From assembly GCA_902499925.1 (NCBI GenBank), contig GCA_902499925.1_4130.1: a DNA stretch of 64,000 nucleotides; one strand, 5' to 3'. Positions 1-17,251 of the stretch are shown piece by piece. Each line of letters opens with the position of its first letter. Within the stretch, counting starts at the first letter, position 1. A model generated the notes under the pieces. It was not told where the DNA came from. It searched no databases and saw nothing but the letters and a program-made list of their open reading frames with translations. The position numbers were made by a program, and so were the translations under genes. Source of the DNA: Escherichia coli (GTDB taxonomy: Bacteria > Pseudomonadota > Gammaproteobacteria > Enterobacterales > Enterobacteriaceae).

Positions 1-104
1 TAGCTACTTCCCGCATCAGTTCATCAAAGTTAGCCATTTTATTACTCCTTTTAGTGGGGGAGGATATCTCCCCCTATGCAAAACATTATACGCTTTATTC
101 AGTA

Positions 105-368
105 CTATGCAAGTACTTTTTTCATATAAAGATTATATTCTACACCGCCGTAACCTTCTACGATGATATGTTTTGCGTTATCACGTTTGCATATAGTAAA
201 GGCATCGTTGACGTGTTTTGCATTTTCCAGGGCAACATCGCCGATAGCGGCACATACTGAACTAATAACGATATTCCGCAAAGTACTGGTATCATTAGCG
301 GTCATAGTAGTTTGCAGTACTACGTTGTCGTATACGTGTGCATTGATAGTGATTTCGATAGTGTTCAT
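105..368 (-). CDS. hypothetical small early protein (87 aa)
   Basis: Track ORF 105..422 trimmed to Met19; AGGAGA RBS upstream of ATG; 5'-UTR hairpin (388-409) and promoter-like box upstream. Confidence 0.55.
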   Translation of the reverse strand: MNTIEITINAHVYDNVVLQTTMTANDTSTLRNIVISSVCAAIGDVALENAKHVNDAFTICKRDNAKHIIVEGYGGVEYNLYMKKVLA

Positions 369-455
369 GGTGTATCTCCTGGACTTGAGGGGAAACCATT
401 TCCCCCTCTCGATATAAAACATTATACGTTAATCTAACTACAATGCAAGTACTTT

Positions 456-647
456 TTAAATTTTATTTCCGATATAGTCCGGTCTATTCTTTTCGGTCAT
501 ACGCTTTGCTAATGATTGCATATGGCTTATTGCGTTTAATGTGTCTTCCTCCAGGGATGAATCAACATAATCAGGATCATTCTTCACCTTGCAATGATTA
601 TGATATCGTAGTACTGCCAGTACTTTTTTAACTTCTTCAACTGTCAT
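456..647 (-). CDS. hypothetical protein (63 aa)
   Basis: Minus ORF whose ATG overlaps the stop of 644..916 (ATGA), suggesting translational coupling. Confidence 0.5.
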   Translation of the reverse strand: MTVEEVKKVLAVLRYHNHCKVKNDPDYVDSSLEEDTLNAISHMQSLAKRMTEKNRPDYIGNKI

Positions 648-916
648 AATAAGTATTCCACTTCGTTAGCTTTCAGGTTAGTATCAATCATCAGTGGATT
701 TTTGTAGTTCACAAAACGAGTAGTTTTCTCGATAGCGAATCCCATATAATCCAGCTTACTAACAGTACATTCATTCTTAAAAACTTCTTTCGCTGCATCG
801 ATGGCTGATTGCATGGATAACCGCCCATCTAAGTTAATATTTCCAAATGATCCACCAGCAGAAGTAGGATTACCGTTCATATCTTTAATGATCATAGTAG
901 CGGAGTAGCTGGACAT
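644..916 (-). CDS. hypothetical protein (90 aa)
   Basis: Minus ORF; RBS AAAAGGAAAC before ATG; 5'-UTR hairpin 938-958 and promoter upstream. Confidence 0.6.
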   Translation of the reverse strand: MSSYSATMIIKDMNGNPTSAGGSFGNINLDGRLSMQSAIDAAKEVFKNECTVSKLDYMGFAIEKTTRFVNYKNPLMIDTNLKANEVEYLL

Positions 917-1000
917 AATTTTGTTTCCTTTTAGTATCGGGGAGAACTATTCTCCCCTTGATGTAAACTATTATACAGTACTAATATACTTTGTCAATAC

Positions 1001-1222
1001 TTAATTACGTTTAAAATGATATGTGCCTTTATCATCCTGTACGCCCCATACTGATTTACCATCAACACCAGTGAAACCGGATTGTAATTCAATATGGAAA
1101 CCATTATTATCAACTACAAAAACTTTTTTATTTTCATCCCGATAACATTGATATTCTGAATCAACATTAAAGGCCGCATCATTCAGAAGATTGGAAGCGT
1201 AAATGCAAGTCATTGTAGTCAT
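1001..1222 (-). CDS. hypothetical protein (73 aa)
   Basis: Track ORF trimmed to Met12; RBS TTAAGGAAT; hairpin 1243-1262; promoter TTGCAT-16-TATAAT at 1277-1304. Confidence 0.6.
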   Translation of the reverse strand: MTTMTCIYASNLLNDAAFNVDSEYQCYRDENKKVFVVDNNGFHIELQSGFTGVDGKSVWGVQDDKGTYHFKRN

Positions 1223-1397
1223 GATTTTATTCCTTAATATACCAGGGAGAACCATTTCCCCCTCTCGATATAAAACATTATACTTGATTCTAAGTACAAT
1301 GCAAGTACTTTTTTAAAAATAGTTTTCAGTACTGAATACTTATATAATATATACACTTCCGCACCCTATGGGTCAGTGAGTTATCTCTCAATGAATA

Positions 1398-1437
1398 TAT
1401 AATAGCAAAGGGACTGACCGGAGTCAATCCCTTTTTT
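1398..1437 (-). promoter_or_regulatory. terminator-promoter cassette (early-region variant)
   Basis: Minus strand reads GGGATTGAC-tccg-GTCAGTCCC then TTTGC-TATTAT. Confidence 0.5.
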
Positions 1438-1445
1438 AATCTTTT

Positions 1446-2030
1446 TTATCGTGTTACCTTACTTGCTTCTACATCACGCTTTTTATAGTACTGATTCCAG
1501 ATATTGCGGGTTAAACCGTAATCAAGTACTTTAATAAGTCCATTACGATCCTGGCCGATATTCTGTTTTCTGATATCTCTTATCGTTAGTGTTGATAATG
1601 TATCATCAACGTGTTGTAGTGCATCAGCAAAGCGGTGCTGGCGTTCGATTGCATTACGTTTAATATTGTACTTTAATTCGTTGCACGCGTTAACGTGCTT
1701 CACACTGCCTTTACTTGCAGTACTCAACCGATCCATAACGATAAACATATTATCAGGATCGCATAAATGCATATGCACCTTTGCAAAGTACTGTTTCAAC
1801 TGAGGGCGGTCATAGTCTAAAAAATTCCATACCTTACATTCAGTTTCATTTTGTTCTACACCCGCATCACAATTCGCGACCTTAATCACTAACCGATCAT
1901 TTAAAGCGAAAACTATACGGGAAGAACCAGCACCGATGATCTCCAGGCCAGCTAACCGACAAGCTGAAAGGATCTCTTTGTTGGTTTCCATTTCTGACAG
2001 TGTACGGATGAATTTAGTATAATTACGCAT
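1446..2030 (-). CDS. protein kinase-like mini-kinase (194 aa)
   Basis: Track ORF trimmed to Met20 with RBS AAGGAGA; Gly-rich loop IGAGSSRIV, VIKV lysine, catalytic-loop-like RDIRKQN and DYG 18 residues later; protein ends about 20 aa after DYG. Confidence 0.55.
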   Translation of the reverse strand: MRNYTKFIRTLSEMETNKEILSACRLAGLEIIGAGSSRIVFALNDRLVIKVANCDAGVEQNETECKVWNFLDYDRPQLKQYFAKVHMHLCDPDNMFIVMDRLSTASKGSVKHVNACNELKYNIKRNAIERQHRFADALQHVDDTLSTLTIRDIRKQNIGQDRNGLIKVLDYGLTRNIWNQYYKKRDVEASKVTR

Positions 2031-2061
2031 TGTTTTATCTCCTTGAGTTAATGAAACTATA

Positions 2062-2304
2062 TTACAGTACTTTACTATCAATGGCAACTACTTTTTTAAC
2101 ATTAACGGCGTGGATCACTTCCTTCGTGTTTTTAGTACTGAATACTTTCGCCGCACCATTCACGACCGTGATACGATAGCGACCATTAACATCAACCATA
2201 TTAATAAAGTCCGGCGTGCTGAATGGTGTTGTTTTACATTTCAGTACTGTTAACAGTTCCACCAGCGATGTAGTTTCTTTGATACGTTTTTCTAAAGTAA
2301 TCAT
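2062..2304 (-). CDS. hypothetical protein (80 aa)
   Basis: Trimmed to Met20; RBS GGGGGAAACAAA; promoter TTGACA-17-TACTAT upstream; upstream region duplicated at 2580-2640. Confidence 0.5.
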   Translation of the reverse strand: MITLEKRIKETTSLVELLTVLKCKTTPFSTPDFINMVDVNGRYRITVVNGAAKVFSTKNTKEVIHAVNVKKVVAIDSKVL

Positions 2305-2361
2305 TTTGTTTCCCCCGTGTTGGTATGTACATATAGTACTAAAACATTTGAGTACTGTCAA

Positions 2362-2580
2362 TTAGATAATATTATATTTCTTAAAATAAAATGCGTCCTG
2401 TGTTGGTTGATACTCGATACCGTTACCGTTATTGACTTCAACTAATAAACCTTTGTCAATAAGTTTTTTAATAGTACGATACCCTTGTTGAAAATTGGTA
2501 AAATGTGAATCATTACGAAAGGTATAACCGTGCTTAACTGCTTCATCAATAGTTTTCTTTTCGATTTTAGATAATTTCAT
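2362..2580 (-). CDS. hypothetical protein (72 aa)
   Basis: Trimmed to Met20; RBS GGGAGAAACAAA; upstream leader nearly identical to that of 2062..2304. Confidence 0.5.
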   Translation of the reverse strand: MKLSKIEKKTIDEAVKHGYTFRNDSHFTNFQQGYRTIKKLIDKGLLVEVNNGNGIEYQPTQDAFYFKKYNII

Positions 2581-2633
2581 TTTGTTTCTCCCGTGTTGGT
2601 ATATGTACATAGTACTAAAACAATTGAGTACTG

Positions 2634-2888
2634 TCAACGTGATATTAGTTTTATTTTCTTATTATATTGTTGGTGTTCATATAGGTTTATCTTTCCTGTG
2701 TTCTCTATTACTATTCTGTTGTTAGTGTCTACATCGATTACACGCAGTTTTCCGTTGCTTAACTTCCTTGGTAATAGGTTACCATTAATAAACTCATTAG
2801 CAAGCTGTACGGCCTTTGTGATGATTCTCTGAGGTGCTTTATAGTGTACCCGCAAGATATTATCTTTATATAGTTGAACCTTAATCAT
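2634..2888 (-). CDS. hypothetical protein (84 aa)
   Basis: Minus ORF; RBS AGGATAAACTAAA directly after terminator hairpin of upstream gene. Confidence 0.55.
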   Translation of the reverse strand: MIKVQLYKDNILRVHYKAPQRIITKAVQLANEFINGNLLPRKLSNGKLRVIDVDTNNRIVIENTGKINLYEHQQYNKKIKLISR

Positions 2889-2902
2889 TTTAGTTTATCC
2901 TA

Positions 2903-2928
2903 TAAAAAAGGCGGGAACTGATCCCGCC
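2903..2928 (-). terminator. intrinsic terminator (hairpin GGCGGGATCAGTTCCCGCC + U-run on minus RNA)
   Basis: GC-rich inverted repeat followed by T6 in the direction of minus-strand transcription, immediately 3' of 2951..3346. Confidence 0.55.
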
Positions 2929-2950
2929 GTGTTGTTAGTACTGCAAGTTA

Positions 2951-3346
2951 TTAGATAACCTGGCGGCGTTTACTGTATACTGTTACACGATTACCCTTAC
3001 GGTCGTGTCGGATCTCTTTCTGGTTGCGAATCAGTTCACTTGGACGCTTAAGGTTTGCCAGGTGATCCGCGTGAGTCCAAGCGGTATGGTTTACCTGTAC
3101 TTTGATATCAGAACCAGCGATAAACTCATCTTGTGCGTTAAGTACTGCCGCCAGATCTTCCGCTCGTTTTAGTTCTGCTGCTGTTAGTACTGGCTCAGGT
3201 GAATTCACAATATCAGAGATCTCTTTGAACTGTACGGCCCAACGTTGGCCTTTCGGTGCATCTTTGCCCATGTCTTTAAATGCTGCTCCTTCCTCGCGTG
3301 CAACAATACGGGCAGCTTCACGGGTAGCGTAGAATTTAGTAATCAT
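2951..3346 (-). CDS. hypothetical protein (131 aa); paralog of 15602..15865
   Basis: Minus ORF, start at Met4 with AGGA RBS; shares KFYATREAARI...FKDMG...RWA...DRKGNRVTVY with 15602..15865. Confidence 0.6.
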   Translation of the reverse strand: MITKFYATREAARIVAREEGAAFKDMGKDAPKGQRWAVQFKEISDIVNSPEPVLTAAELKRAEDLAAVLNAQDEFIAGSDIKVQVNHTAWTHADHLANLKRPSELIRNQKEIRHDRKGNRVTVYSKRRQVI

Positions 3347-3441
3347 GGTATACATCCTATTAGTTAAGTTAGTACTACAAGTTAGAGTCTATTATAAAGT
3401 ACTATCTGGGCAATGTCAAATAGTACTTTAAATGGATTCTA

Positions 3442-3765
3442 TTACATGTCTTTCTTACGTTTTACATCGTAGTAGCGAACTGTTATTTCTTTGTTAATCT
3501 CTTTTTCGATGTGGTGAATAACTTTTTCTTTCGGGTTGAAACCTATAACGGTTTCTTTAATGATCTCCAAACCAGTGTATTCGCCTTGTGTGCCGTAACC
3601 GTATGTAAAGGTTTCATGTCCCAGGTCTTCCCAGCGGTCGCCAATTAACGCAGACACGTAGCAAGAGTGGTAAGTATTGCCGTGTGAATCAGTCCACCGA
3701 TTAACTTTAATGTCAAAGGAGGTTACAATTTTCAATTCTACTTTCTGGGCAAGGATCATAGCCAT
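3442..3765 (-). CDS. hypothetical protein (107 aa); paralog of 10290..10613
   Basis: Minus ORF; shares RWTDSHGNTYHSC(Y/H)VS and FTYGY motifs with 10290..10613; promoter 3822-3850 and hairpin 3789-3807 upstream. Confidence 0.6.
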   Translation of the reverse strand: MAMILAQKVELKIVTSFDIKVNRWTDSHGNTYHSCYVSALIGDRWEDLGHETFTYGYGTQGEYTGLEIIKETVIGFNPKEKVIHHIEKEINKEITVRYYDVKRKKDM

Positions 3766-3788
3766 TTTTATTTCTCTCTTTTAGTTAG

Positions 3789-3807
3789 GAGGGGAACCAT
3801 TCCCCTC
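3789..3807 (-). promoter_or_regulatory. 5'-UTR stem-loop (family member)
   Basis: GAGGGGAA-loop-TTCCCCTC inverted repeat between promoter and RBS. Confidence 0.5.
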
Positions 3808-3821
3808 ACTTGATGTAAACT

Positions 3822-3850
3822 ATTATACAGTACTAAGATACTTTGTCAAT
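3822..3850 (-). promoter_or_regulatory. sigma70-like early promoter (TTGACA-16/17-TATAAT)
   Basis: Reverse complement reads TTGACAaagtatcttagtactgTATAAT. Confidence 0.6.
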
Positions 3851-3852
3851 AC

Positions 3853-4035
3853 TTATTTTTTGGAAAGTTTACGCATTAATTCTACGCTTTCTTGTGAACG
3901 TTTTGCTACCTGGCAAGCTGCATGGACAGTAAACATTTTTGTATAGTCTGACGCTTTGCCACCGAACCGAGCGGCACGTTCACGGGCACTTGGAACTAAT
4001 ACTATTTCTTTCTTGCAGATAGTGCACTTAGCCAT
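3853..4035 (-). CDS. small CxxC protein (60 aa)
   Basis: Trimmed to Met16 (MAKCTICKKE); RBS GAGAGAAATAAAA; hairpin upstream. Confidence 0.5.
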   Translation of the reverse strand: MAKCTICKKEIVLVPSARERAARFGGKASDYTKMFTVHAACQVAKRSQESVELMRKLSKK

Positions 4036-4123
4036 TTTTATTTCTCTCTCTTTGTTAGGAGGGGAACCGTTTCCCCTCACTCGATGTAAACTATTATACA
4101 GTACTAAGATACTTTGTCAATAC

Positions 4124-4399
4124 TTAATTATTGTAAATGTCGTGAATAGTGATAAAGTTTTTACGACCGTAAACCTGCAAATCAATATCAATGTAGTGCT
4201 TATCTAGTACATCCTCGACGCTTAACGCGGTGTCGTGGATATCTTCGTAGAATTGAGGATCTACAATCTTGCTTAAGTCATCCGGCGTTAACTTATCGTT
4301 AAGCCATTGAACCGCCTGGATATCTGCTTCACGTTTCCAGTCTTCCAGGTTAGTAGTCAGTACTTGTTCGATTTCGTTAGCTGTCAGTAGAATCCGCAT
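4124..4399 (-). CDS. hypothetical acidic protein (91 aa)
   Basis: Minus ORF; RBS AAGGAAACATAAAA. Confidence 0.6.
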   Translation of the reverse strand: MRILLTANEIEQVLTTNLEDWKREADIQAVQWLNDKLTPDDLSKIVDPQFYEDIHDTALSVEDVLDKHYIDIDLQVYGRKNFITIHDIYNN

Positions 4400-4665
4400 T
4401 TTTATGTTTCCTTATCAGTGGTTGATGTAAGTATTATACTCTTTTACTTTCTATTGTCAAACTATTTTATCAGGGGAGGTTTTCTTATGTCTTACTCCTG
4501 GACTACTTAACGGGGTTACTTGTTTCGTTCCCCGTCCTGATGTAAAACATTATACTTGATTCTAAGTACAATGCAAGTACTTTTTTAAAAATAGTTTTCA
4601 GTACTAGCCACCAGCATATAATAGATACATTTATGCACCCTGTGGGCTGATTTGTTTCTATGCGT

Positions 4666-4705
4666 ATATAATAGCAAAGGGACTGACCGGAGTCAATCCC
4701 TTTTT
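4666..4705 (-). promoter_or_regulatory. terminator-promoter cassette (early-region variant)
   Basis: Same element as 1398-1437. Confidence 0.5.
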
Positions 4706-4714
4706 CAATTATTT

Positions 4715-4864
4715 TTAAACTTCTTTCGGGTTGCGATAGGTGATAGCGTTCGGGTACATTTGTTTAATGTTATTCCATGCCTGGTTAACATTGTAACCAC
4801 TTGAGCGAATCAGTTGGTTACTACCGACACCTTGAAACACTACTTCGAATAAGAATTCTTTCAT
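4715..4864 (-). CDS. hypothetical small protein (49 aa)
   Basis: Untracked ORF MKEFLFEVVFQGVGSNQ...; ATG overlaps TGA of 4861..5034 (ATGA); followed by terminator cassette 4666-4705. Confidence 0.35.
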   Translation of the reverse strand: MKEFLFEVVFQGVGSNQLIRSSGYNVNQAWNNIKQMYPNAITYRNPKEV

Positions 4865-5034
4865 GCTTTCACCTCGCGATCTGCTTTACCTTTACGCCAG
4901 GACATTACTAATTGTTCGCGTTGCCATAAGTCGAGTGATACAAAAAGTTTTGCGGTATCACTTTTAGGATACTCGCCATTAGTACCTAACCGATAAAACA
5001 GATCTTTCAGTACTGATAATTCTACTTGGATCAT
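4861..5034 (-). CDS. hypothetical protein (57 aa)
   Basis: Track ORF 4861..5136 trimmed to Met35 (MIQVELS) with RBS AGAGGAAAG; hairpin upstream. Confidence 0.5.
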   Translation of the reverse strand: MIQVELSVLKDLFYRLGTNGEYPKSDTAKLFVSLDLWQREQLVMSWRKGKADREVKA

Positions 5035-5120
5035 TATACTTTCCTCTTTGTTGGGAGGGGAACTATTCCCCTCTCGATATAAAACATTATACACTTTATT
5101 CAGTACTGTGCAAGTACTTT

Positions 5121-5333
5121 TTAATCTTTCAGCCAATGATCCTGAATGAATTTTTCGCCGGAACCTTGCTGCATAGATTGTAACAGACGTTCACGATGAG
5201 CGGCGGCGAATTGCTCAGTACTATGCGTTACACCTGGTTGATATCTGGATTCACCATTGGGGGCGATGTATTGTACATCCCACGGTTTTTCGTTAGTATC
5301 AGACCATTTACGAACGATTAGTTGACCTTGCAT
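5121..5333 (-). CDS. hypothetical protein (70 aa)
   Basis: Minus ORF; RBS AGAGGAAAGAAAA; hairpin GGGGAGAATCATTTCTCCCC upstream. Confidence 0.6.
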   Translation of the reverse strand: MQGQLIVRKWSDTNEKPWDVQYIAPNGESRYQPGVTHSTEQFAAAHRERLLQSMQQGSGEKFIQDHWLKD

Positions 5334-5416
5334 TTTTCTTTCCTCTTAGTGGGGAGAATCATTTCTCCCCTTCATGTAAACTATTATACAGTACTAGATT
5401 ATCTTGTCAATAGTTT

Positions 5417-5740
5417 TTATTCACCTTGTTTGAATTTAGTTTTCTCCATTGATTCCATGATTGCAACCAATACACCGTGGATCTCGCTTAACGCGGAATC
5501 ACTAAAAGCATTAATGAATAGTCGATCATTCTCGCGAATATTTTTAATGTACTTTTCAGCAGTAGTTGCGAATTCATTCAACGGTAGATCAAATGCTTTA
5601 TCCCATGATGGATGGCGTAATTGTAACAGTACTGGATTATCACGATCACCAGGGGAAAACGTACCAGTGATGAAACATACGCCCGGAATACTTTCGAACT
5701 GGCAACGGACTTCCTTTGTGATAGTAGTATGAATGTACAT
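5417..5740 (-). CDS. hypothetical protein (107 aa)
   Basis: Minus ORF; RBS AGAGGATAACAATAA. Confidence 0.6.
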   Translation of the reverse strand: MYIHTTITKEVRCQFESIPGVCFITGTFSPGDRDNPVLLQLRHPSWDKAFDLPLNEFATTAEKYIKNIRENDRLFINAFSDSALSEIHGVLVAIMESMEKTKFKQGE

Positions 5741-5767
5741 TTATTGTTATCCTCTATTAAATTAATA

Positions 5768-5956
5768 TTACAGTTTATGAATCAATTCTTTATCTAAGCG
5801 ATAGCGTACATTATTAATGGTAACAGCATTATTTTTAATGCTACGCTGTACAGGTCCACCAGCAATAACAAATGTTGCTTTATTACCCCGAACAATGATA
5901 GCACTTCCAGGATTACCGAAATCATCTTGTACTAAAATACTTGATAAGTTTTCCAT
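5768..5956 (-). CDS. hypothetical protein (62 aa)
   Basis: Minus ORF; RBS AGAGGAAATAAAA; hairpin upstream. Confidence 0.55.
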   Translation of the reverse strand: MENLSSILVQDDFGNPGSAIIVRGNKATFVIAGGPVQRSIKNNAVTINNVRYRLDKELIHKL

Positions 5957-6034
5957 TTTTATTTCCTCTTAGTAGGGGAAGATGTTTCCCCTTGATGTAA
6001 GTACTATAACAGTACTGAAAACTAAATGCAAGTA

Positions 6035-6391
6035 CTATGATAAAATCATGATAGGATATTCACTATCGATCAGTACCTCGAATCCGAAACCTTCGTACCA
6101 TTCTTTAAGATTAAAGGCGTTATCTTCTCCCGTATCGCATTCTAAGATGATACAATCTGAATCATCAGCGGCATCGATAAAGGCATTCATTAATTCGTTA
6201 CCTTCACCATTGCCCCGACTATCAGGATCAACATAAAGAGAATCAATAAACGCTACACGGTCATAATCAAGATCCGGTGCAATGATTCCACGTTTAACAA
6301 ACCAGTACTGCAATTGTGCTACTTTGCCCTGTACTTGATAGCCAGTGATCTCGCCATTGTCAGTAGTACGCGTGATATGTTGTATTCCCAT
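6035..6391 (-). CDS. GNAT-like N-acetyltransferase (118 aa), tentative
   Basis: Motif VDPDSRGNGEGNELMNAF resembles the GNAT acetyl-CoA-binding motif A; RBS GAGGATAG; TATAAT box upstream. Confidence 0.5.
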   Translation of the reverse strand: MGIQHITRTTDNGEITGYQVQGKVAQLQYWFVKRGIIAPDLDYDRVAFIDSLYVDPDSRGNGEGNELMNAFIDAADDSDCIILECDTGEDNAFNLKEWYEGFGFEVLIDSEYPIMILS

Positions 6392-6455
6392 GATTACTAT
6401 CCTCAGTTAAGATATAAAACATTATACACTATCTTTCAGTACTGTCAATTACTTT

Positions 6456-6713
6456 TTATCTCATAGATCTATGCCAACAATTACGCGGGGGACGTTTAAA
6501 AGTACTATCATGATCCTCCTGGCAAGTAATGCAGTACATGCACCCTATAACGGCCTGGCGTCGATTCTCAGGGATTTTATCGCCGCAGTCGAGGCAATGT
6601 ACTAGTGATTCTCTTTGTGCGTTAATTTGCTTTCTAGCGTGGTTGACGGCGGCCTGAATCACTGCGTTGATCTCGTCTTGTTCGGCCCCGTCTTTCGCGT
6701 ATCCTACTGCCAT
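6456..6713 (-). CDS. TraR/DksA-family C4 zinc-finger protein (85 aa)
   Basis: C-x2-C...C-x2-C arrangement (CLDCGDKIPENRRQAV...CITCQ) typical of TraR/DksA zinc fingers; RBS GAGGTTAAAATA. Confidence 0.6.
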   Translation of the reverse strand: MAVGYAKDGAEQDEINAVIQAAVNHARKQINAQRESLVHCLDCGDKIPENRRQAVIGCMYCITCQEDHDSTFKRPPRNCWHRSMR

Positions 6714-7042
6714 TATTTTAACCTCATTATAAAAATACTATAGTACTGTAATGCTACAATAATACTACTAGTGTTTATCTTATTCAAACCATATGATACT
6801 ACATATCCATCAGCATTACCACGGATAGTAACGCCTTTGTACTGTCTATATAAATTCAACTGCGTATATTGCCTTTGATCAAGAATTGATCAGAATTATA
6901 CGCCTTATGCTAAATTAATCCAGTACTTTTTTGATCATTTATTGATCGATATTATATAGTTACATTTGTGCACCCTATGGGTTAGTGACGTTCTCGTCTT
7001 GATGTAAGTATTATGCCAGTACTGGAGGATATTGTCAATAGA

Positions 7043-7246
7043 TTATTTTAATTTTTTTCTGTCATTGATTAATGCTTTCAGTACTATACTAATAACTTGC
7101 AATGATTCATCAATGACAATGAAATTATTCTCTTTCATTAGATGATAGTTACCATTGATTGTATATTCTAACGAGTACTGTTTACGTTTAATTTTTGATA
7201 ATGTTTCTATTTGTTTTTGTACTGATTTCATGCTAATCATTGTCAA
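7043..7246 (-). CDS. hypothetical protein (67 aa)
   Basis: Minus ORF; weak RBS; follows terminator-like hairpin 7314-7339. Confidence 0.4.
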   Translation of the reverse strand: MTMISMKSVQKQIETLSKIKRKQYSLEYTINGNYHLMKENNFIVIDESLQVISIVLKALINDRKKLK

Positions 7247-7345
7247 ACGTCCTGTAACGCATTCTAACGAGATAAACGGTTTAGTACTGGCATTGTATAG
7301 GGTAAATGATTAAAGCCCACCAGCGTTAACCAGTGGGCTATAATC

Positions 7346-7489
7346 TTACATCTTGCGGATAATCTTAACAGTATCTTTCACCGATTTACCGTTTTGCTGA
7401 CATTGCTCGATCATCGCGTATTGTTCTGCGGTCAGATCCTCGCCAGTTTTTGCCAGTACTGCGTCGATGAATGAATCCAGTGCGATCAT
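7346..7489 (-). CDS. hypothetical small protein (47 aa)
   Basis: Untracked ORF MIALDSFIDAVLAKTGEDL...; RBS AGAGAGAAACAAA. Confidence 0.35.
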   Translation of the reverse strand: MIALDSFIDAVLAKTGEDLTAEQYAMIEQCQQNGKSVKDTVKIIRKM

Positions 7490-7588
7490 TTTGTTTCTCT
7501 CTTAGGTTAAGTTAACTACTGTTTATAAAACTTATTATACAGTACTATCAAACGTTGTCAATATCTTTAATAGTACTGGTAATATATT

Positions 7589-7768
7589 TTAGCGGTAATC
7601 GTCGTATGCTTTATTCACCTGGCGAATGTAACTTTCAAAGGCTTCGTCTACCGTTTCATACTCCCGAACATAATCACCATAGGAAACTACATACATACCT
7701 TTTTGATCTTCAAACGTCATGATGATAGAATCCAGGCCGATGATTTCAGTTTTTGCGATGATAGCCAT
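7589..7768 (-). CDS. hypothetical protein (59 aa)
   Basis: Trimmed to Met22; RBS AAGGAATTAAAA. Confidence 0.5.
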   Translation of the reverse strand: MAIIAKTEIIGLDSIIMTFEDQKGMYVVSYGDYVREYETVDEAFESYIRQVNKAYDDYR

Positions 7769-7850
7769 TTTTAATTCCTTAGTAGTGTAGTTGATAAAAG
7801 TTATTATGCCAGTACTATCAATCAGTGTCAATAGTACTGTGATAATATTT

Positions 7851-8063
7851 TTAGTTAATGATAGTCAGTGTAAAATTGTAATCCCCTGCCTGGTATAGTA
7901 CTTTGTCGCCGAACGTTCCAACACGTTTCATATTGCAATAGATACCCATAACACTTTTTACATCTTTGATATTCCGAACGCCAGTAATATCCTTGTTTAA
8001 ATGATCGTGATCAGAAAATAAAACTTGTTTTGCATTTTTCAGTACAGTGCAGATATTAGCCAT
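7851..8063 (-). CDS. hypothetical protein (70 aa)
   Basis: Minus ORF; hairpin 8084-8103 and promoter upstream. Confidence 0.55.
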   Translation of the reverse strand: MANICTVLKNAKQVLFSDHDHLNKDITGVRNIKDVKSVMGIYCNMKRVGTFGDKVLYQAGDYNFTLTIIN

Positions 8064-8083
8064 TTTGTTTTCTCTCTGTTAGT

Positions 8084-8103
8084 GGGGAGAATCATTTCTC
8101 CCC
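8084..8103 (-). promoter_or_regulatory. 5'-UTR stem-loop (family member)
   Basis: Perfect 8-bp inverted repeat GGGGAGAA-tcat-TTCTCCCC. Confidence 0.5.
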
Positions 8104-8157
8104 TTGATGTAAACTATTATACAGTACTATAATCTATTGTCAAACTATTTTTTTATA

Positions 8158-8499
8158 TTATTCGAAATCTTCTGGACCGGACTGATAATCATCTTCACCG
8201 TATGCACTTTCTAACCGCTCACCAGTGTGATCATCAGTTAGTGAGTCATCCTCATAGTTCACGTCTACGCCAGTGATGTAAAACTGGCTATCGTCTGGAT
8301 CATTGAAATTAATTTTTTGGATGTTTACAATAACTGTATTGATACCCAGGACACCGCCATCAGCCGTTACAAAGTACTGATAGTTTTCGCAACCGCCTGA
8401 ATTGAAACCGTAATTAATTTCGGCCCGACCATCATTTAAACGCAGTGCCTGGGCGATGATTTCATTTTCAAAGTTAGATTGAGCAATTGAGATAGTCAT
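8158..8499 (-). CDS. hypothetical acidic protein (113 aa)
   Basis: Minus ORF; RBS AAGGAAACAAATC; hairpin upstream. Confidence 0.6.
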   Translation of the reverse strand: MTISIAQSNFENEIIAQALRLNDGRAEINYGFNSGGCENYQYFVTADGGVLGINTVIVNIQKINFNDPDDSQFYITGVDVNYEDDSLTDDHTGERLESAYGEDDYQSGPEDFE

Positions 8500-8681
8500 G
8501 ATTTGTTTCCTTATTACCAGGGGAAACCGTTTCCCCTTTCGATGTAAAACATTATACGCTTATTGAGATAGTTTGCAAGTACTTTCTACAAATACTTTTA
8601 AAATAGTTTTCAGTACTCAAACATTATATAATAGATACACTTATGCACCCTGTGGGCTAGTGAGCTATCTCTCAATGAATA

Positions 8682-8720
8682 TATAATAGCAAAATGGCTG
8701 ACCGGAGTCAACCACTTTTT
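8682..8720 (-). promoter_or_regulatory. terminator-promoter cassette (early-region variant)
   Basis: TGGTTGAC-tccg-GTCAGCCA then TATTAT. Confidence 0.5.
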
Positions 8721-8864
8721 TCATTTATTTTTAGCTTTTAGAATCGCCGCCTTTCGCGTCATGCCTTGCTTGATGTATTCCTGTACTTTCGCTTTACGTG
8801 CATTCGCTTTATTTGCTTTCGTAAACGCCGAACAACTTTTATAATTTAAGCCTGTTGGATTCAT
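8721..8864 (-). CDS. hypothetical small basic protein (47 aa)
   Basis: Untracked ORF MNPTGLNYKSCSAFTKANKANARKAK...; last gene of a three-gene coupled unit, followed by terminator cassette. Confidence 0.35.
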   Translation of the reverse strand: MNPTGLNYKSCSAFTKANKANARKAKVQEYIKQGMTRKAAILKAKNK

Positions 8865-8954
8865 TTAAATCACCATAAAGAATAGATAGGTTACTAACAA
8901 TGCCGCGATCAATGCACCGACCAGGGCCGAACTATAGTAAGCTAATGATTTCAT
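8865..8954 (-). CDS. hypothetical hydrophobic peptide (29 aa)
   Basis: Untracked ORF MKSLAYYSSALVGALIAALLVTYLFFMVI; ATG overlaps stop of 8951..9103. Confidence 0.3.
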   Translation of the reverse strand: MKSLAYYSSALVGALIAALLVTYLFFMVI

Positions 8955-9103
8955 TTTTTAGCCTGAAAGTAATGTTTAATTTGAGCGGCGGTCAGTGCAC
9001 AATTACGCAGGAAGTTTTCTGTATAACTGCGGCGAGTACTGAAAGAGAATTGACCTTTGCCGTTACCGATAGTAACATCAAACCGAGCGTTGTATTGTTT
9101 CAT
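8951..9103 (-). CDS. hypothetical protein (50 aa)
   Basis: Trimmed to Met11; RBS AGGAGAAACAAA; hairpin upstream. Confidence 0.45.
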   Translation of the reverse strand: MKQYNARFDVTIGNGKGQFSFSTRRSYTENFLRNCALTAAQIKHYFQAKK

Positions 9104-9181
9104 TTTGTTTCTCCTGTTATTGGGGAGAATCATTTCTCCCCTTCATGTAAAACATTATACAGTACTAAAAACTAATTGCAA

Positions 9182-9331
9182 GTACTATTTTTTAGATTTA
9201 CGCAAACTTTCTACCATCTCAGGAGTAAGGCCAGGCGGGTAGAAAACCACTTCATCAACGAAACGTAAAGGGAATACCCCATCTAAGGTTGAACGTGCTT
9301 TCTTGTTAGTACTCTTTTTTGATGCTTTCAT
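9182..9331 (-). CDS. hypothetical small basic protein (49 aa)
   Basis: Untracked ORF MKASKKSTNKKARSTLDG...; RBS AAGGAATATGAA; hairpin upstream. Confidence 0.4.
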
Positions 9332-9400
9332 TTCATATTCCTTAATTAGTGGGGAGAATCATTTCTCCCCTTCATGTAAAACATTATACGCGTTTAAAAA

Positions 9401-9610
9401 CTAATTGCAAGTACTATTTGAAAGTAAATGCTCATACGCTGCATTAACTACGTTTTCAATAACCGACTGTACAGAAAGATCCCCCACGGCCTGGCTATAG
9501 TAGAAATCGCTTACAGTGGTGTCATCGTATGCAAATACTTTACCAGGTACTGCATCAATCACATACATATTAACCTTTAAGATGTCGATCTTATCCTGTA
9601 CAGTAAGCAT
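9401..9610 (-). CDS. hypothetical protein (69 aa)
   Basis: Minus ORF; RBS AAAGGTTAATTAAT. Confidence 0.5.
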   Translation of the reverse strand: MLTVQDKIDILKVNMYVIDAVPGKVFAYDDTTVSDFYYSQAVGDLSVQSVIENVVNAAYEHLLSNSTCN

Positions 9611-9615
9611 ATTAA

Positions 9616-9888
9616 TTAACCTTTTAAGTACTGGCTTAAGTAGTCTTGTTGATCTTCGGTGATTGCAGCCATCTTCCCTAGTACTGGATTGATGATATAA
9701 TCCCCTGTAACGTCCTGTAACGCATTCTCAGGCGGTTTAACGGCTGGGGTAGCCATAGCCATTGCCTGGACTTGTTCGACGCTGTAACGCTCATAAAGGC
9801 GGCATTCTTCCGGTGTTAACATAGCATCAGTACGCTTCATCGGTTTAATGATGCTTTCGATCTCATTCAGTACTTGATTAACGTTCAT
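9616..9888 (-). CDS. hypothetical protein (90 aa)
   Basis: Minus ORF; RBS GGGGATTATACC. Confidence 0.55.
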   Translation of the reverse strand: MNVNQVLNEIESIIKPMKRTDAMLTPEECRLYERYSVEQVQAMAMATPAVKPPENALQDVTGDYIINPVLGKMAAITEDQQDYLSQYLKG

Positions 9889-9939
9889 GGTATAATCCCC
9901 AATATAAGCGGCCTGAATCGACCGCTAACGATGTTTTGA

Positions 9940-10209
9940 TTAATAGGTGTATGGTTGACGCTCAAACAATGATTGCACGTTGTACGCCCCGCTTATGGGC
10001 TTCGCTGGTAAATCAATTTTATATTGTTCACGCTTAAAGATAATAAAACGGCAATTGTTTTTAACATCAAAATTGATTGAACGTTCCAGGAGTTTTCCAT
10101 CGTGCACAAATACAAGATAACCGCTTGCTACTTGTTTTGTAGTACTGGTTGCAACCATAGACCGACGAACATGTGTACCTGCATCGATTAAAGTACTGAT
10201 ATTTTTCAT
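9940..10209 (-). CDS. hypothetical protein (89 aa)
   Basis: Minus ORF; RBS AAGAGGATCGTATA. Confidence 0.6.
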   Translation of the reverse strand: MKNISTLIDAGTHVRRSMVATSTTKQVASGYLVFVHDGKLLERSINFDVKNNCRFIIFKREQYKIDLPAKPISGAYNVQSLFERQPYTY

Positions 10210-10289
10210 TATACGATCCTCTTAAGTTAATTTAATTTCTTTCCCCTATGCAGACACTATATCAAAGTATCTGCATAAAGTAAAGCTAA

Positions 10290-10613
10290 TTAAAGATCTT
10301 TTTTGCGTTTAACATTCTGTACAGTACAATGCAACGGGATATTAAGATCATTGCACAAACGAGTAAGGGAGGTTTCATCAGTATTAAGCCCGTCTACTGA
10401 TTCCTTTAAGAGAGATAACGCCGTTTGTTGATATGCATCTTCATAGCCATAAGTAAATGATTCAACCGCCAGATCATTCAAACCGTTATCCAGTTCAACG
10501 CTTACATGACAAGAATGATAAGTATTGCCATATGAATCAGTCCAACGTTTACCGTCAACATTGATTGCACGGATTGCAGCCAGGGAAACGGTGTTAATGA
10601 TAGTTTTAGCCAT
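10290..10613 (-). CDS. hypothetical protein (107 aa); paralog of 3442..3765
   Basis: Minus ORF; RBS AAGGAATACAAAA; shared RWTDS(Y/H)GNTYHSC motif. Confidence 0.6.
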   Translation of the reverse strand: MAKTIINTVSLAAIRAINVDGKRWTDSYGNTYHSCHVSVELDNGLNDLAVESFTYGYEDAYQQTALSLLKESVDGLNTDETSLTRLCNDLNIPLHCTVQNVKRKKDL

Positions 10614-10702
10614 TTTTGTATTCCTTAAATTAATATGTTGTCTTGATAAAATCTATTATGCCAGTACTATCAAACTATGTCAATAGTACTGTGATAATAT
10701 TT

Positions 10703-10846
10703 TTACTTACTTTTTTCTTTCTTTATTACTTCCACCTGGTCGGCCCATTCTTTACCCCATACTTGTAAATTATAATGGTACTGGCAAAGAGCAACGCCCC
10801 GCTTTAAACCCGTAATAGATTTCTGACCACATTGACAAGTTTTCAT
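10703..10846 (-). CDS. hypothetical small Cys-containing protein (47 aa)
   Basis: Untracked ORF MKTCQCGQKSITGLKRGVALCQYH...; RBS AAGGAAACTAAA; hairpin upstream. Confidence 0.4.
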   Translation of the reverse strand: MKTCQCGQKSITGLKRGVALCQYHYNLQVWGKEWADQVEVIKKEKSK

Positions 10847-10932
10847 TTTAGTTTCCTTGTAGTGGGGAGAACCATTTCTCCCCTTGATGTAATGTATTAT
10901 ACTTTATTCGATTTACTTTGCAAGTACTTTTT

Positions 10933-11160
10933 TTAATTTAATTCATCAAGGCAAAGGATACGCTCAACGCCCAAATCAGTTAAACTAATCGACGGCACTT
11001 GATAGGTTTCAATGTATGCTACACTTGCCCACTGACCGAACTCATTAACGGCCCAGGTATTCATTGCATTTTGCAATTCCGCACCTTCCTTGTTGGTAAT
11101 GACTGCAACTACTTGTTCGTTGCCAGTAGTACCAGATACGCGAGTAATGATAATAGCCAT
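10933..11160 (-). CDS. hypothetical protein (75 aa)
   Basis: Trimmed to Met20; RBS AAAGGAATCAAAACA; promoter TTGCAC-16-TATAAT upstream. Confidence 0.55.
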   Translation of the reverse strand: MAIIITRVSGTTGNEQVVAVITNKEGAELQNAMNTWAVNEFGQWASVAYIETYQVPSISLTDLGVERILCLDELN

Positions 11161-11396
11161 TGTTTTGATTCCTTTGATTTGGAAGGAGAACCGTTTCCCC
11201 CTCTCGATGTAAAACATTATACGCTAATCTCTTAATCGTGCAAGTACTTTTTATTACTTTTTGCAAAATACTTTAAACGCTCTCAATCGCATTACAACGA
11301 CCTTAACGCCACCAGCTAGGGCAATTGCATCAGATAATCAGTTTAATGCGTTAGAATCGTTTCTAGGCGGTGCTGGTGGCCTGGTAAACGATAAAC

Positions 11397-11425
11397 ACAA
11401 AAAAGCCCACCATTTAAGGTGGGCT
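11397..11425 (-). terminator. intrinsic terminator
   Basis: Hairpin AGCCCACC-ttaaatg-GTGGGCT followed by U6 on minus-strand RNA, 3' of 11447..11929. Confidence 0.6.
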
Positions 11426-11446
11426 AGTGATTCAGTACTTTAATTG

Positions 11447-11929
11447 TTATGCTTCAACTTTGCGATGAGCTTCGATCCATTCCTCGCGAGTCATACCGCT
11501 GGAGTTAATCGCATCCAGTACTACAGCAATGCAGTTACCACGCACCGGAATCAGATATTCTTCCCCGTTGTCCAGTACTACCGCTACGCGTTCCTGAATC
11601 CATTTTTTTGCTTTTACTTCTGGCTTATCTTCCCCGTACTTAACCGCCAGGGCTTTTTGTGCCATCTCTGTAACTACTTCCAGATCCAGCCCAACTACTG
11701 CCGCCTGAATACTTTCAATTGTTGCTTGCAGTTCTGCTTCACGGGCCGCTTTCGCCGCTTCAATTTCTGCCGCTTTATTTGCTTGTAGTTCTTTCGCAGT
11801 ACTGTACGCGATGTTAAAATTATTGCGTACCGCTTTCATGGTATCGTTGTCCAGTTCAGCCAGGATCTCAGCCGCGACGTTAGTTTCATTTGCTACCAGT
11901 GCTTTGATGAATGATTTTACATTAGCCAT
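11447..11929 (-). CDS. Ala-rich protein, predicted coiled coil (160 aa)
   Basis: Trimmed to Met6; RBS GAGGATTTATAAA; promoter TTGACA-16-TAGAAT upstream. Confidence 0.6.
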   Translation of the reverse strand: MANVKSFIKALVANETNVAAEILAELDNDTMKAVRNNFNIAYSTAKELQANKAAEIEAAKAAREAELQATIESIQAAVVGLDLEVVTEMAQKALAVKYGEDKPEVKAKKWIQERVAVVLDNGEEYLIPVRGNCIAVVLDAINSSGMTREEWIEAHRKVEA

Positions 11930-12131
11930 TTTATAAATCCTCAATTAAAGTTTAGTTTACGTTTATTAGTGTATCAAAGTTTTCTCGACGTGTCCAGTTT
12001 TTCGTTCGACTTACTGGCGGTCTACTTAGTGCTCCCCGTCTTGATGTAATACATTCTACGCCTTTTTGCGGTAATGTCAACTACTTTTTTTAAAACTATT
12101 TTCAAAGTATCTCAGTACTACGATACTATAA

Positions 12132-12161
12132 AAACAAAAAAGCCCACTGTATAAGTGGGCT
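12132..12161 (-). terminator. intrinsic terminator
   Basis: Hairpin AGCCCACT-tataca-GTGGGCT followed by U-run on minus RNA, 3' of 12179..12478. Confidence 0.6.
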
Positions 12162-12178
12162 AGTGATTCAGTACTAGA

Positions 12179-12478: not shown

Positions 12479-12562
12479 TTGATTATCCTTAGTTACCAGG
12501 GGGAACCGCTCCCCCTTGCGATGTAAAATATTATACAGTTCTAAAAACTATTATCAAGTACT

Positions 12563-12799: not shown

Positions 12800-12906
12800 T
12801 TTCTTATTCCTTAGTTACCAGGGGAACCACTCCCCTATGCAAAACATTATACGCGTTTAAAAACTAATTGCAAGTATTTTAATAAAAAGTATTTGAAAAA
12901 TAGTTG

Positions 12907-12935
12907 TTGACAAGTGCATCCAGTACTGGCATAAT
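12907..12935 (+). promoter_or_regulatory. plus-strand (antisense-oriented) sigma70-like promoter
   Basis: TTGACA-17-CATAAT read on the plus strand; CCCACCGGGTGC box about 30 nt downstream; no plus-strand ORF follows. Confidence 0.4.
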
Positions 12936-13003
12936 TACTACATAAAGACAAAACAGTCTCTAACCCACCGGGTGCCGAGATCCGTCTATTAAATGATTCA
13001 GTA

Positions 13004-13036
13004 CTGAAAAAGTAACGGGGAGTTATTATCTCCCCG
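13004..13036 (-). terminator. intrinsic terminator
   Basis: Hairpin CGGGGAGATAATAACTCCCCG then UUACUUUUUC on minus RNA, 3' of 13042..13263. Confidence 0.55.
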
Positions 13037-13041
13037 CGTTG

Positions 13042-15078: not shown

Positions 15079-15107
15079 TTGACAGCATTATCAAGTACTG
15101 GTATAAT
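15079..15107 (+). promoter_or_regulatory. plus-strand (antisense-oriented) sigma70-like promoter
   Basis: TTGACA-17-TATAAT on plus strand; CCCACCGGGTGC box downstream. Confidence 0.4.
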
Positions 15108-15281
15108 ATATCCCATGACAACAGCTAACCCACCGGGTGCACAATTGTAACTATACTAAACTAATTTTTCTATAGATACACTCCCGCACCCTATGGGCTA
15201 CGGCTTATCTGCCAATGAATACATTATGCCAGTACTGACAAAATAAGTCAATACCGGCAATTGTAAAGATTTGTAAACTGC

Positions 15282-17008: not shown

Positions 17009-17036
17009 TTGACTCAGTACTAAAAAAGCGTATAAT
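17009..17036 (+). promoter_or_regulatory. plus-strand sigma70-like promoter
   Basis: TTGACT-16-TATAAT on plus strand inside the non-coding island. Confidence 0.4.
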
Positions 17037-17223
17037 TACTACATAGACGCGAGAAAGCGGATACCCCAGGGGGTGGGAAGATCCGTCCAAAATTCATAAA
17101 ATTTAAAAAGGATACACTCCCGCACCCTAGCAGGTCAAAGCACTTTCTCAGTACTGAAATATAGTACCATAGTCCGGCCCAGGATAGCAAGCAAATTAAT
17201 TAAAACTTTTTGCTTCCAGGGTA

Positions 17224-17251
17224 TTGCTTTATTTTTCCAGTACTGTATAAT
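17224..17251 (+). promoter_or_regulatory. plus-strand promoter-like box
   Basis: TTGCTT-16-TATAAT on plus strand; CCCACCGGGTGC box downstream. Confidence 0.35.

Follow-up and report, generated by a model that had tools for sequence, protein, structure and literature searches.

Lambda OOP is a short phage antisense RNA, convergent with cII, and in E. coli 5'-terminal stem-loops stabilise mRNA. In T4-like phages, promoter-early stem-loop (PeSL) cassettes have been described (Arbiol et al. 2010, PMC2839356; Comeau et al. 2014, PMC4122927), and in phage HK022 the put RNA, encoded at putL and putR, is a polymerase-utilisation antiterminator that acts in cis, at the beta' zinc-binding domain of the host RNA polymerase, without a phage protein (PMC9378689). 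Put RNA is ~70 nt long, is built of long bulged stems with a triplex in stem I, and is present in two copies per genome, each leading an operon (PMC9378689). The RaK2/121Q-like jumbo phages, in turn, carry terminal repeats of ~20 kb that are full of small early genes. Here we describe a block recurring in such a repeat, within a stretch of 64,000 nt from an assembly filed under Escherichia coli (GCA_902499925.1, contig GCA_902499925.1_4130.1; the whole stretch is referred to as the window), and we compare this block, read as a module of ~48 nt at the predicted 5' end of early transcripts, with the systems above.

The repeated block and its promoters

An earlier note on this DNA, made from the letters alone, had pointed to an intergenic block of about 55 bp with a GCACCC-N3-TGGG palindrome. 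A ~55-bp block can indeed be aligned across the copies, the positions listed for it are right within ~10 nt, and the motif is well above expectation for this base composition (GCACCCNNNGGGT four times against 0.02 expected in an exact search, and GCACCCNRTGGG with at most one mismatch eight times against 0.58). The core pattern RCC(C/U)-N3/4-RGGUG(C/G) finds ten copies in the window, their cores all within 1361-17291 and their full units confined to 1-17,305; six lie on the minus and four on the plus strand (Table 1). One of these, at 17063-17076 on the plus strand (ACCCCAGGGGGTGG), goes beyond the earlier list, and what had been called a partial copy at 17110 is a divergent one with hairpin 2 at 17135-17122. 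A covariance model, built partly from other phages on a structure-anchored seed, recovers nine of the ten copies (E 9e-17 to 1.6e-4), four of them absent from the seed (15170-15218, 4619-4663, 15118-15156 and 17043-17092; E 4e-12 to 1.6e-4). Between 17.3 and 64 kb of the window it gave no match better than E=0.5, coverage outside the repeat consisting of these 46 kb and of the numbers of places found by BLAST.

Every copy has the same polarity relative to a sigma70-type promoter of its own, mostly TTGAC(A/T)-17-TGn-TATTAT/CATAAT. In 77 instances of the core pattern, taken from the window and from the fetched repeat regions of six related phages (10-13 units each), the best-scoring promoter-like pair stands at the expected place without exception, all ten window units included, and the core begins 20-28 nt past the best-scoring -10-like hexamer. 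The match to consensus is at least 5/6 for the -35 in 63 units and for the -10 in 67, a 17-bp spacer is present in 58 and TGn in 49. At the sixth and seventh positions after the -10, C (59 of 75) and A (61 of 75) prevail, and since C/A at these positions is the usual -1/+1 pair, the start is predicted at the A of this conserved CA. In unit 1, for instance, the minus strand reads in order a terminator-like hairpin, AAAGGGATTGACTCCGGTCAGTCCCTTT, which holds the -35 TTGACT; GC; the -10 TATTAT, 17 bp on from the -35 and after TG; ATATTC; and then A-UUGAGAGAUAACUCACUG-ACCCAUAGGGUGC-GGAAGUGUAUAUAU.

Because all copies follow promoters on their own strand, with the core at this fixed distance, the block has one orientation, set by transcription. 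The two orientations reported before are thus an artefact of reading a single strand: plus copies follow plus-strand promoters and minus copies minus-strand promoters. As far as the letters tell, the block is the first ~46-48 nt transcribed from a special class of strong host-type promoters. It had also been said to stand usually just before a terminator-promoter cassette, which on plus-strand reading is true of three of the six minus-strand copies (1373, 4647 and 8657), but in the sense of transcription the cassette lies upstream and drives the block. Likewise, the block does not separate a terminator from the promoter that follows; the -35 of its promoter is itself part of the terminator hairpin, and the block is what this promoter transcribes first.

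Structure and conservation of the module

The module is composed of two hairpins and a tail. Hairpin 1, at ~+4 to +17, has a 3-5 bp stem in more than 20 different sequences (for instance UGAG/CUCA, UGGC/GCCG, GCCA/UGGC, GGAG/CUCC, GACG/CGUC, ACCG/CGGU and UCGAA/UUCGA), which closes a conserved, purine-rich, GNRA-like loop of 6-8 nt (GAGAAA, GCGAAA, AGAUAA, AGAACAA); in a short form the stem is gone and the A-rich segment is kept (CAUGAAAACAAGCUA). Hairpin 2 is nearly invariant and consists of RCCC, a loop of 3-4 nt that mostly begins with A, and GGGU, followed by GC. Then come the 14 conserved positions of the tail, RGARN-U-S-U-R-U-C-Y-A-U, such as GGAGAUGUAUCUAU or GGAGAUCCGUCUAU.

In the model-based alignment (110 matches, 106 distinct), 94% of the cells of helix 1 are paired, each of its four pairs shows 34-50 double-sided changes among the 106 distinct sequences, and sliding one partner by 1-3 columns lowers pairing to 27-54%. 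Helix 1 holds 19 G.U cells against 0 A.C cells, as would mark pairing in the sense-strand transcript and not in its complement. In an independent best-hairpin test, 39 of 65 unique sequences had stems of at least 4 bp; among shuffles the share was 24%, a statistic that is inflated by relatedness among the sequences. RNAalifold on a plain MAFFT alignment returned hairpin 2 only, with hairpin 1 misaligned, and the structure-anchored seed and covariance model were used instead. Hairpin 2 is 98% paired, with C-G pairs in 102-106 of the 106 distinct copies, and varies only at its basal pair, which is A-U in 59 of 106 and G-U in 40 of 106, never G-C or swapped. For the tail, column-anchored tests revealed no consistent pairing partner, be it in the linker, in the 5' region or in the tail itself.

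Three further candidates in this region were rejected. A third helix or pseudoknot with the tail was not borne out, as 5'/tail complementarity averaged 4.19 bp in cognate and 4.20 bp in non-cognate combinations (p ~0.56). The 5'/tail matches AGAUA/UAUCU and AUAGA/UCUAU are likewise unsupported, cognate pairs being not more complementary, and a mini open reading frame (ORF) in the tail (AUG-UAU-CUA-UAG) is not conserved, its start codon missing in many tails. As a separate observation, one tail subtype (GGAGATCCGTCT or GGAGATCTATCT) contains GATC, a Dam site, at ~+38 to +41 of the transcript; it is found in units 7 and 9 (12979-12982 and 17080-17083) and in many relatives, and a Dam-like methyltransferase is encoded in relatives BF and CBB.

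For the palindrome, a dimeric protein-binding site or a short RNA hairpin had been suggested, of which the hairpin fares better, given the fixed orientation to the promoter, the A-U/G-U basal pair and the adjacent covarying hairpin; a DNA site accounts neither for the strand rule nor for hairpin 1. In its strongest form, a double-stranded operator would consist of ACCC-N3-GGGT and the tail at +20 to +48, and promoters of this class would be shut by a dimeric repressor or roadblock protein bound to it. Its position just past the start would suit a roadblock, and hairpin 2 is invariant rather than covarying, as expected of DNA contacted by a protein. However, two 4-bp half-sites around a 3-bp spacer make a very short site, their degeneracy is one-sided (5' base A or G, 3' base always T), unlike the expectation for a symmetric dimer, the palindrome is always accompanied by the neighbouring hairpin-1 region, in fixed polarity, and duplex DNA leaves a covariation with G.U and no A.C unexplained. 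We regard such an operator as very improbable, and consider it highly probable that the block is an element acting at the RNA level.

A motif search in related phages, suggested earlier, bears the block out, since promoter and module recur there together, with 110 model matches in RaK2-like phages. A 95-nt BLAST query of promoter plus block matched 66 phage records of RaK2-like genera at 72-99% identity, from phages of Escherichia, Klebsiella (K64-1, RaK2, Muenster), Salmonella (7t3, SE_PL, Munch), Cronobacter (GAP32), Serratia (BF), Erwinia and Pectobacterium (CBB), with 4-5 BLAST-detectable places per repeat copy and, wherever repeats are annotated, at terminal-repeat positions. The covariance model matches (110, of which 106 distinct) come from 16 sources and include RaK2-like phages of Klebsiella, Salmonella, Cronobacter, Serratia and Pectobacterium as well as uncultivated relatives, the Erwinia copies being found by BLAST. 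In IMG/VR, the true instances lie on RaK2-like jumbo contigs of ~350-380 kb, on one contig of 109 kb and on three shorter ones (5-33 kb). The other IMG/VR matches, which would have spread the module beyond this clade, lack both promoter and hairpin 1 and look like chance. As to a host origin, the stringent pattern CTARCCCAYAGGGTGCNNNNNTNTATC had 0 matches in 185,579 bacterial and archaeal species genomes.

This conservation also bears on a more modest view, in which the block belongs to a plain PeSL-type promoter-terminator cassette, duplicated and recombining, that shuffles small early genes and whose transcribed part is functionless. Such a view would account for the terminator hairpins that enclose the -35 of window units 1, 2 and 4 (1407-1434, 4676-4703 and 8691-8718) and of many relatives, and for cassettes flanking small ORFs of unassigned function, as PeSLs do in T4-like phages (PMC2839356, PMC4122927). 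Yet window units 3 and 5-10, and many units overall, have no terminator hairpin at the promoter, hairpin-1 stems differ within one genome with their pairing kept, and the module persists in phages whose units are only ~72-81% identical to those of the window. Stems that vary with pairing kept, and persistence at such identity, argue for selection on structure and on specific bases rather than for recent copying, and we hold the cassette-only explanation to be quite improbable.

Searches of known families were negative. No Rfam 15 family reached its gathering score anywhere in the 64 kb of the window, and at E up to 5 window 1-19 kb gave only two weak Trp_leader matches, both at unrelated terminators; an ARAGORN-type scan found no tRNA or tmRNA gene in the window. 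The motif strings were not found in any relevant paper in the literature search, and the motif is not described in the papers on CBB, RaK2, fEgEco12 and PA5oct. The comparative evidence shows the module, as a predicted transcript, to be promoter-coupled, strand-specific, structured and deeply conserved, and its lack of a counterpart among described RNA families makes it a probable new regulatory RNA signal of the early phase. The two Trp_leader matches, for their part, are near-identical strong terminators on the minus strand (11404-11425 and 12141-12161; AGCCCAC...GTGGGCT, then T6) that reach 25 and 21 bits where the gathering score is 41, and are almost certainly plain terminators.

Genomic setting and candidate mechanisms

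By its matches, the source element is a 121Q/RaK2-like Asteriusvirus jumbo coliphage. Megablast of window 1-6000 matched 101 phage records, led, at 94-96% identity, by Asteriusvirus jumbo phages of Escherichia (Ecwhy_1, G17, 121Q, PBECO4 and others). In phage vB_Ec-M-J, the stretch matching the window falls within an annotated direct terminal repeat of 21.5 kb, and for fEgEco12 both PhageTerm and restriction mapping support a repeat of 20,993 bp, reported as confirmed (PMC13070987). Since mapping of window 16000-22000 onto fEgEco12 sets the repeat boundary, a physical genome end, at ~18,390, window 1 to ~18.4 kb is assigned to the terminal repeat, a direct repeat of ~21 kb in full. This repeat is the early-gene region; it is crowded with small minus-strand ORFs, most of them without a Pfam family, and contains stand-alone terminators (e.g. 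2910-2928, 11404-11425 and 12141-12161).

Within it, the units sit between one gene's terminator and the next gene's own promoter, in either orientation, and mostly do not lead ORFs. Co-oriented with the genes are 49 of the 77 units, the other 28 being opposite. In about half of the co-oriented ones, a promoter of a second class follows 45-80 nt on, with its own leader hairpin and Shine-Dalgarno sequence, and then the gene. Nine isolated antisense units in six phages (window 12963; K64-1 21721 and 14340; 7t3 16678 and 8110; RaK2 15350 and 8282; BF 9117; CBB 10246) have a called terminator that starts 34-40 nt past hairpin 2, and no ORF; these units are ~100 nt long and share their terminator with the convergent upstream gene. 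The remaining units form convergent pairs 70-90 bp apart, one to three per phage, those of the window being 15128/15198 and 17063/17135.

We favour, tentatively, the RNA domain itself as the product, because the units look functional either way round and several promoter-to-terminator units have no ORF. Host sigma70 RNA polymerase would transcribe the module from the unit's own promoter, starting at the conserved CA. Hairpin 1, likened to a 5' end-protecting stem-loop because it lies 2-3 nt from the predicted 5' end and its stem sequence is free, would structure and protect the 5' end of the RNA, whereas hairpin 2, GC and tail would, to judge from their near-invariance, form a sequence-specific recognition site whose partner may be conserved across Enterobacterales or across these phages. 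The ~10 units per terminal repeat would thereby act as a set of gene copies for a small non-coding RNA domain, made early and in abundance and working in trans via its partner, by titration, as a decoy or by marking. This domain would be released as ~100-nt RNAs at the terminators of the antisense units and would elsewhere form the 5' part of longer transcripts. The trans-acting small-RNA mechanism taken alone we rate as possible, at clearly less than an even chance, and the whole statement, an RNA-level element that acts in trans, is offered with about the same reserve.

Several points weigh against this proposal. The start sites and 3' ends are predictions. Regarding structure, the seed set was chosen for pairing and an alignment derived from the model leans towards structure, hairpin 2 has no compensatory change, so that its pairing is backed by the A-U/G-U alternation and the context only, and single sequences fold modestly better than shuffles (z -0.7 to -2.4), with alternative folds competing; because folding support of this kind is weak, the case for structure rests on the comparative evidence. 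Regarding the product, co-oriented units have no convincing terminator before the next promoter, for which reason a discrete small RNA from them would need processing, and at least one unit, in a relative phage (L006, at 20058), directly leads an ORF, with a Shine-Dalgarno sequence and ATG 37 nt past hairpin 2, an arrangement that fits a leader role in cis. Regarding the partner, Pfam found no RNA-binding domain, and hence no candidate, among 37 terminal-repeat ORFs.

As the main rival we consider a signal in the nascent RNA that would act in cis and reprogram the polymerase transcribing it, in the manner of HK022 put, which works as RNA alone, or of lambda nut, which works with factors: the hairpins, emerging just after initiation, would bind polymerase or a factor, maybe at a hairpin-stabilised pause in the tail, and would alter pausing or termination further on, with read-through of early intrinsic terminators. 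In agreement with this, the module begins at +3/+4 with two stem-loops, comparable to putL at +3 of the PL transcript (PMC9378689), its distance to the start site is fixed, and stand-alone terminators are present in the early region. Furthermore, conservation ends ~14-16 nt past hairpin 2, which would be about the length of RNA inside the polymerase when hairpin 2 emerges. The hairpin-1 loops on their free stem resemble the GNRA-like loops of boxB, and the host transcription machinery is the sole partner that is certainly common to phages of seven host genera at time zero. However, the antisense units run into a strong terminator and the convergent pairs face each other, so that read-through would yield antisense RNA only; the module, at ~48 nt with 3-5 bp stems, is small against the ~70 nt of put; a boxA-like GCTCTTTA, with at most one mismatch, occurs in 1 of the 77 units; and Pfam found no N-like or NusG-like protein among the 37 repeat ORFs. 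On balance, we think a cis signal of this kind rather unlikely. Equally doubtful, in our view, is that the module represents a new polymerase- or factor-capturing class of phage RNA, either a compact put-like nascent RNA that reprograms host RNA polymerase without a protein, or a multi-copy decoy titrating a conserved host RNA-binding or defence factor; in both versions, the ~10 promoters of each terminal repeat would fire as soon as infection begins.

The second promoter class is more numerous in the repeat and has TTGCAA or TTGACA, a 16-bp spacer and TATAAT; 24 such promoters lie on the minus strand. About 19 of the 24 have their own leader, consisting of CAUC(A/G)AG, a hairpin, a Shine-Dalgarno sequence and an ORF, the hairpin being covarying, G/C, 7-9 bp long, beginning at ~+7 and most often GGGGAGAA-AUGR-UUCUCCCC. 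Hairpins at the 5' end are accordingly general in the repeat, a fact that would favour the module as a 5' stability or processing device, with hairpin 1 blocking RNase E/RppH decay and hairpin 2 plus the A/U-rich tail guiding the cut of a host or phage endoribonuclease. Hairpin 1 starts 2-3 nt from the predicted 5' end, its free stem means that structure and not sequence is selected, and 5'-terminal stem-loops are, as said, E. coli mRNA stabilisers. Nevertheless, this explanation, which we find improbable, leaves aside the near-invariance of hairpin 2, GC and tail across genera, the units without a downstream gene, and the genes that have their own second promoter and leader. As an observation in its own right, the leader of the second class (minus-strand examples at 16268, 14229, 10923, 9410, 8143, 5410, 4120, 1304 and 997) looks like a second, separate leader RNA family.

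Table 1. Module units of the window and Pfam-assigned ORFs of the terminal repeat.
Feature	Coordinates	Strand	Parts	Remarks
Unit 1, terminator-like hairpin	1407..1434	-	AAAGGGATTGACTCCGGTCAGTCCCTTT; contains the -35	ends upstream gene (ORF 1446-2087); PeSL-like composite; also annotated terminator in phage G17
Unit 1, promoter	1399..1427	-	-35 TTGACT 1427-1422, 17-bp spacer with TG, -10 TATTAT 1404-1399	
Unit 1, predicted start and hairpin 1	1377..1392	-	predicted start A 1392 (conserved CA, 7 nt past -10); hairpin 1 UGAG-AGAUAA-CUCA 1390-1377	
Unit 1, hairpin 2 and GC	1361..1373	-	ACCC-AUA-GGGU-GC	GCACCC-N3-TGGG of the earlier note, on the transcribed strand
Unit 1, conserved unpaired tail	1347..1360	-	GGAAGUGUAUAUAU	family consensus RGARN-U-S-U-R-U-C-Y-A-U
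Unit 2	4621..4703	-	terminator hairpin 4703-4676, -35 4696-4691, -10 4673-4668, predicted start 4661, hairpin 2 4647-4635, tail to 4621	short form, without hairpin-1 stem
Unit 3	6956..7038	-	-35 TTGACA 7038-7033, TGn-CATAAT 7015-7010, predicted start 7003, hairpin 1 GAC-GAGAAC-GUC, hairpin 2 6982-6970, tail to 6956	
Unit 4	8631..8718	-	terminator hairpin 8718-8691, -35 8711-8706, -10 8688-8683, predicted start 8676, hairpin 1 UGAG-AGAUAG-CUCA, hairpin 2 8657-8645, tail to 8631	
Unit 5	15172..15251	-	-35 15251-15246, -10 15228-15223, predicted start 15216, hairpin 1 UGGC-AGAUAA-GCCG, hairpin 2 15198-15186, tail to 15172	convergent with unit 8
Unit 6	17108..17190	-	-35 TTGCTA, 18-bp spacer, TGG-TACTAT, hairpin 2 ACCU-GCUA-GGGU 17135-17122	divergent copy, below covariance-model threshold; convergent with unit 9
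Unit 7	12907..13036	+	promoter 12907-12935, predicted start 12942, hairpin 1 AGAC-AAAACA-GUCU, hairpin 2 12963-12975, tail to 12989, bidirectional terminator 13016-13036	antisense stand-alone; predicted RNA ~100 nt, no ORF
Unit 8	15079..15154	+	TTGACA-17-TGG-TATAAT 15079-15107, hairpin 2 15128-15140, tail to 15154	short form; converges on unit 5
Unit 9	17009..17090	+	TTGACT-16-TATAAT 17009-17036, predicted start 17043, hairpin 1 CGC-GAGAAA-GCG, hairpin 2 variant ACCCCAGGGGGUGG 17063-17076, tail to 17090	converges on unit 6
Unit 10	17224..17305	+	-35 TTGCTT, 16-bp spacer, -10 TATAAT (17224-17251), predicted start 17258, hairpin 1 AGUC-GAGAAA-GACU, hairpin 2 17279-17291, tail to 17305	faces genome end, no ORF
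ParE-like toxin domain	2637-2888	-	Pfam, E 6e-11	terminal-repeat ORF
DksA/TraR C4 zinc finger	6459-6713	-	Pfam, E 4e-9	terminal-repeat ORF
GNAT acetyltransferase	6038-6391	-	Pfam	terminal-repeat ORF
DUF7249	13915-14181	-	Pfam	terminal-repeat ORF, paralogue
DUF7249	15954-16190	-	Pfam	terminal-repeat ORF, paralogue

Among the 37 repeat ORFs, Pfam matches were limited to the ParE-like, GNAT, DksA/TraR zinc finger, DUF7247 and DUF7249 families and to weak kinase matches. The DksA/TraR-like protein could act on host RNA polymerase at the module promoters. The final ~1.4 kb before the boundary (17,000-18,400) holds promoters and structured non-coding stretches and almost no ORFs; there, on the plus strand at 17349-17445, a promoter TTGACA-17-GATAAT precedes structured, G/C-rich DNA (CTGCGGGGAAACTATCCCCACGCGGTAGGGG) that has no ORF, and the two may form a further small non-coding unit near the genome end.

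Two DNA motifs were seen around the promoters. The 8-bp palindrome CAGTACTG occurs 62 times in the whole window against 0.9 expected (for instance at 1327-1334, 7017-7024, 12921-12928, 15230-15237 and, clustered around the terminal-repeat boundary, 17826-18480); it stands directly 5' of the extended -10 in module promoters (cCAGTACTGGcATAAT), again ~22-30 nt past hairpin 2, and, as AAAAAGTACTTGCA, directly 5' of the -35 in the other promoter class, and it may be a motif for DNA modification or a site bound by a phage protein. A Fur box close to consensus, GAGAATGATAATCATTTAC, lies in the 40-60 bp gap of convergent units in Klebsiella (K64-1, RaK2), Salmonella (7t3) and Serratia (BF) relatives (L004 10480-10500 and 11340-11365; L006 5800-5825 and 12075-12100; L007 5485-5515; L008 1020-1045), which suggests that host iron status may gate the convergent promoters in these relatives; the window has no Fur box at up to 3 mismatches.

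Comparison with described systems

With the module, the terminal repeat of these jumbo phages gains a testable regulatory grammar of two promoter classes, each with its own structured leader, and a 48-nt RNA module with clear covariation that is undescribed in the databases and literature searched. Should it bind RNA polymerase or a host factor, the module would be added to the very few RNAs with control over elongation, or with a titrating effect on host proteins, while a phage takes over the cell, and it could supply synthetic biology with a compact part. Should its role be confined to stabilising or marking transcripts, it would still be an annotation feature for ~70 jumbo-phage genomes, whose intergenic regions are now blank or labelled 'terminator'.

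Set beside lambda OOP, an isolated antisense unit is likewise a promoter, ~100 nt and a terminator shared with the convergent upstream gene. However, the overlap of the module with the neighbouring mRNA is limited to the terminator or 3' end of the latter, and what is conserved is not the antisense part but a common 5' domain present in many copies. The module is also reminiscent of lambda nut (boxA plus boxB), in that a variable-stem hairpin with a purine-rich, GNRA-like loop and a conserved linear element follow early promoters, the loops here having 6-8 nt and boxB a GNRA-like pentaloop bound by an N protein, but the order and spacing of the elements differ, the invariant second hairpin has no nut counterpart, and a boxA (CGCUCUUUA-like) is missing from the first ~100 nt of nearly all units, the single unit with GCTCTTTA being the one counted above. 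With put it shares the character of a non-coding element of an early sigma70 transcript, located downstream of an early promoter and built of two stem-loops, from +3 in putL and from +3/+4 here. In contrast to put, it is no ~70-nt RNA with two long stem-loops, its stems measuring 3-5 and 4 bp, and it is present in ~10-13 copies per repeat, many of them with no operon behind; by the published description of put, the module is set apart from it.

The closest likeness is to the PeSL. In a PeSL, and here in window units 1, 2 and 4 and in many relatives, a near-consensus sigma70 early promoter is fused to a G/C stem-loop that overlaps the -35 and ends upstream transcription, and both are repeated many times among small early ORFs of unassigned function, which PeSLs shuffle by recombination or release as mini-circles; the strong sigma70-like early promoter that marks a PeSL precedes all 10 window units and all 77 instances. 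Nonetheless, a PeSL consists of promoter and stem-loop only, whereas the module adds ~48 conserved transcribed nt (hairpin 1, hairpin 2 and tail); many of its units have no terminator hairpin, antisense stand-alone units and convergent pairs occur, and the module is conserved across genera, whereas PeSLs are pair-specific. The conserved transcribed module is thus a new addition to a known type of early-promoter cassette, and there is a real chance that it represents a new functional class.

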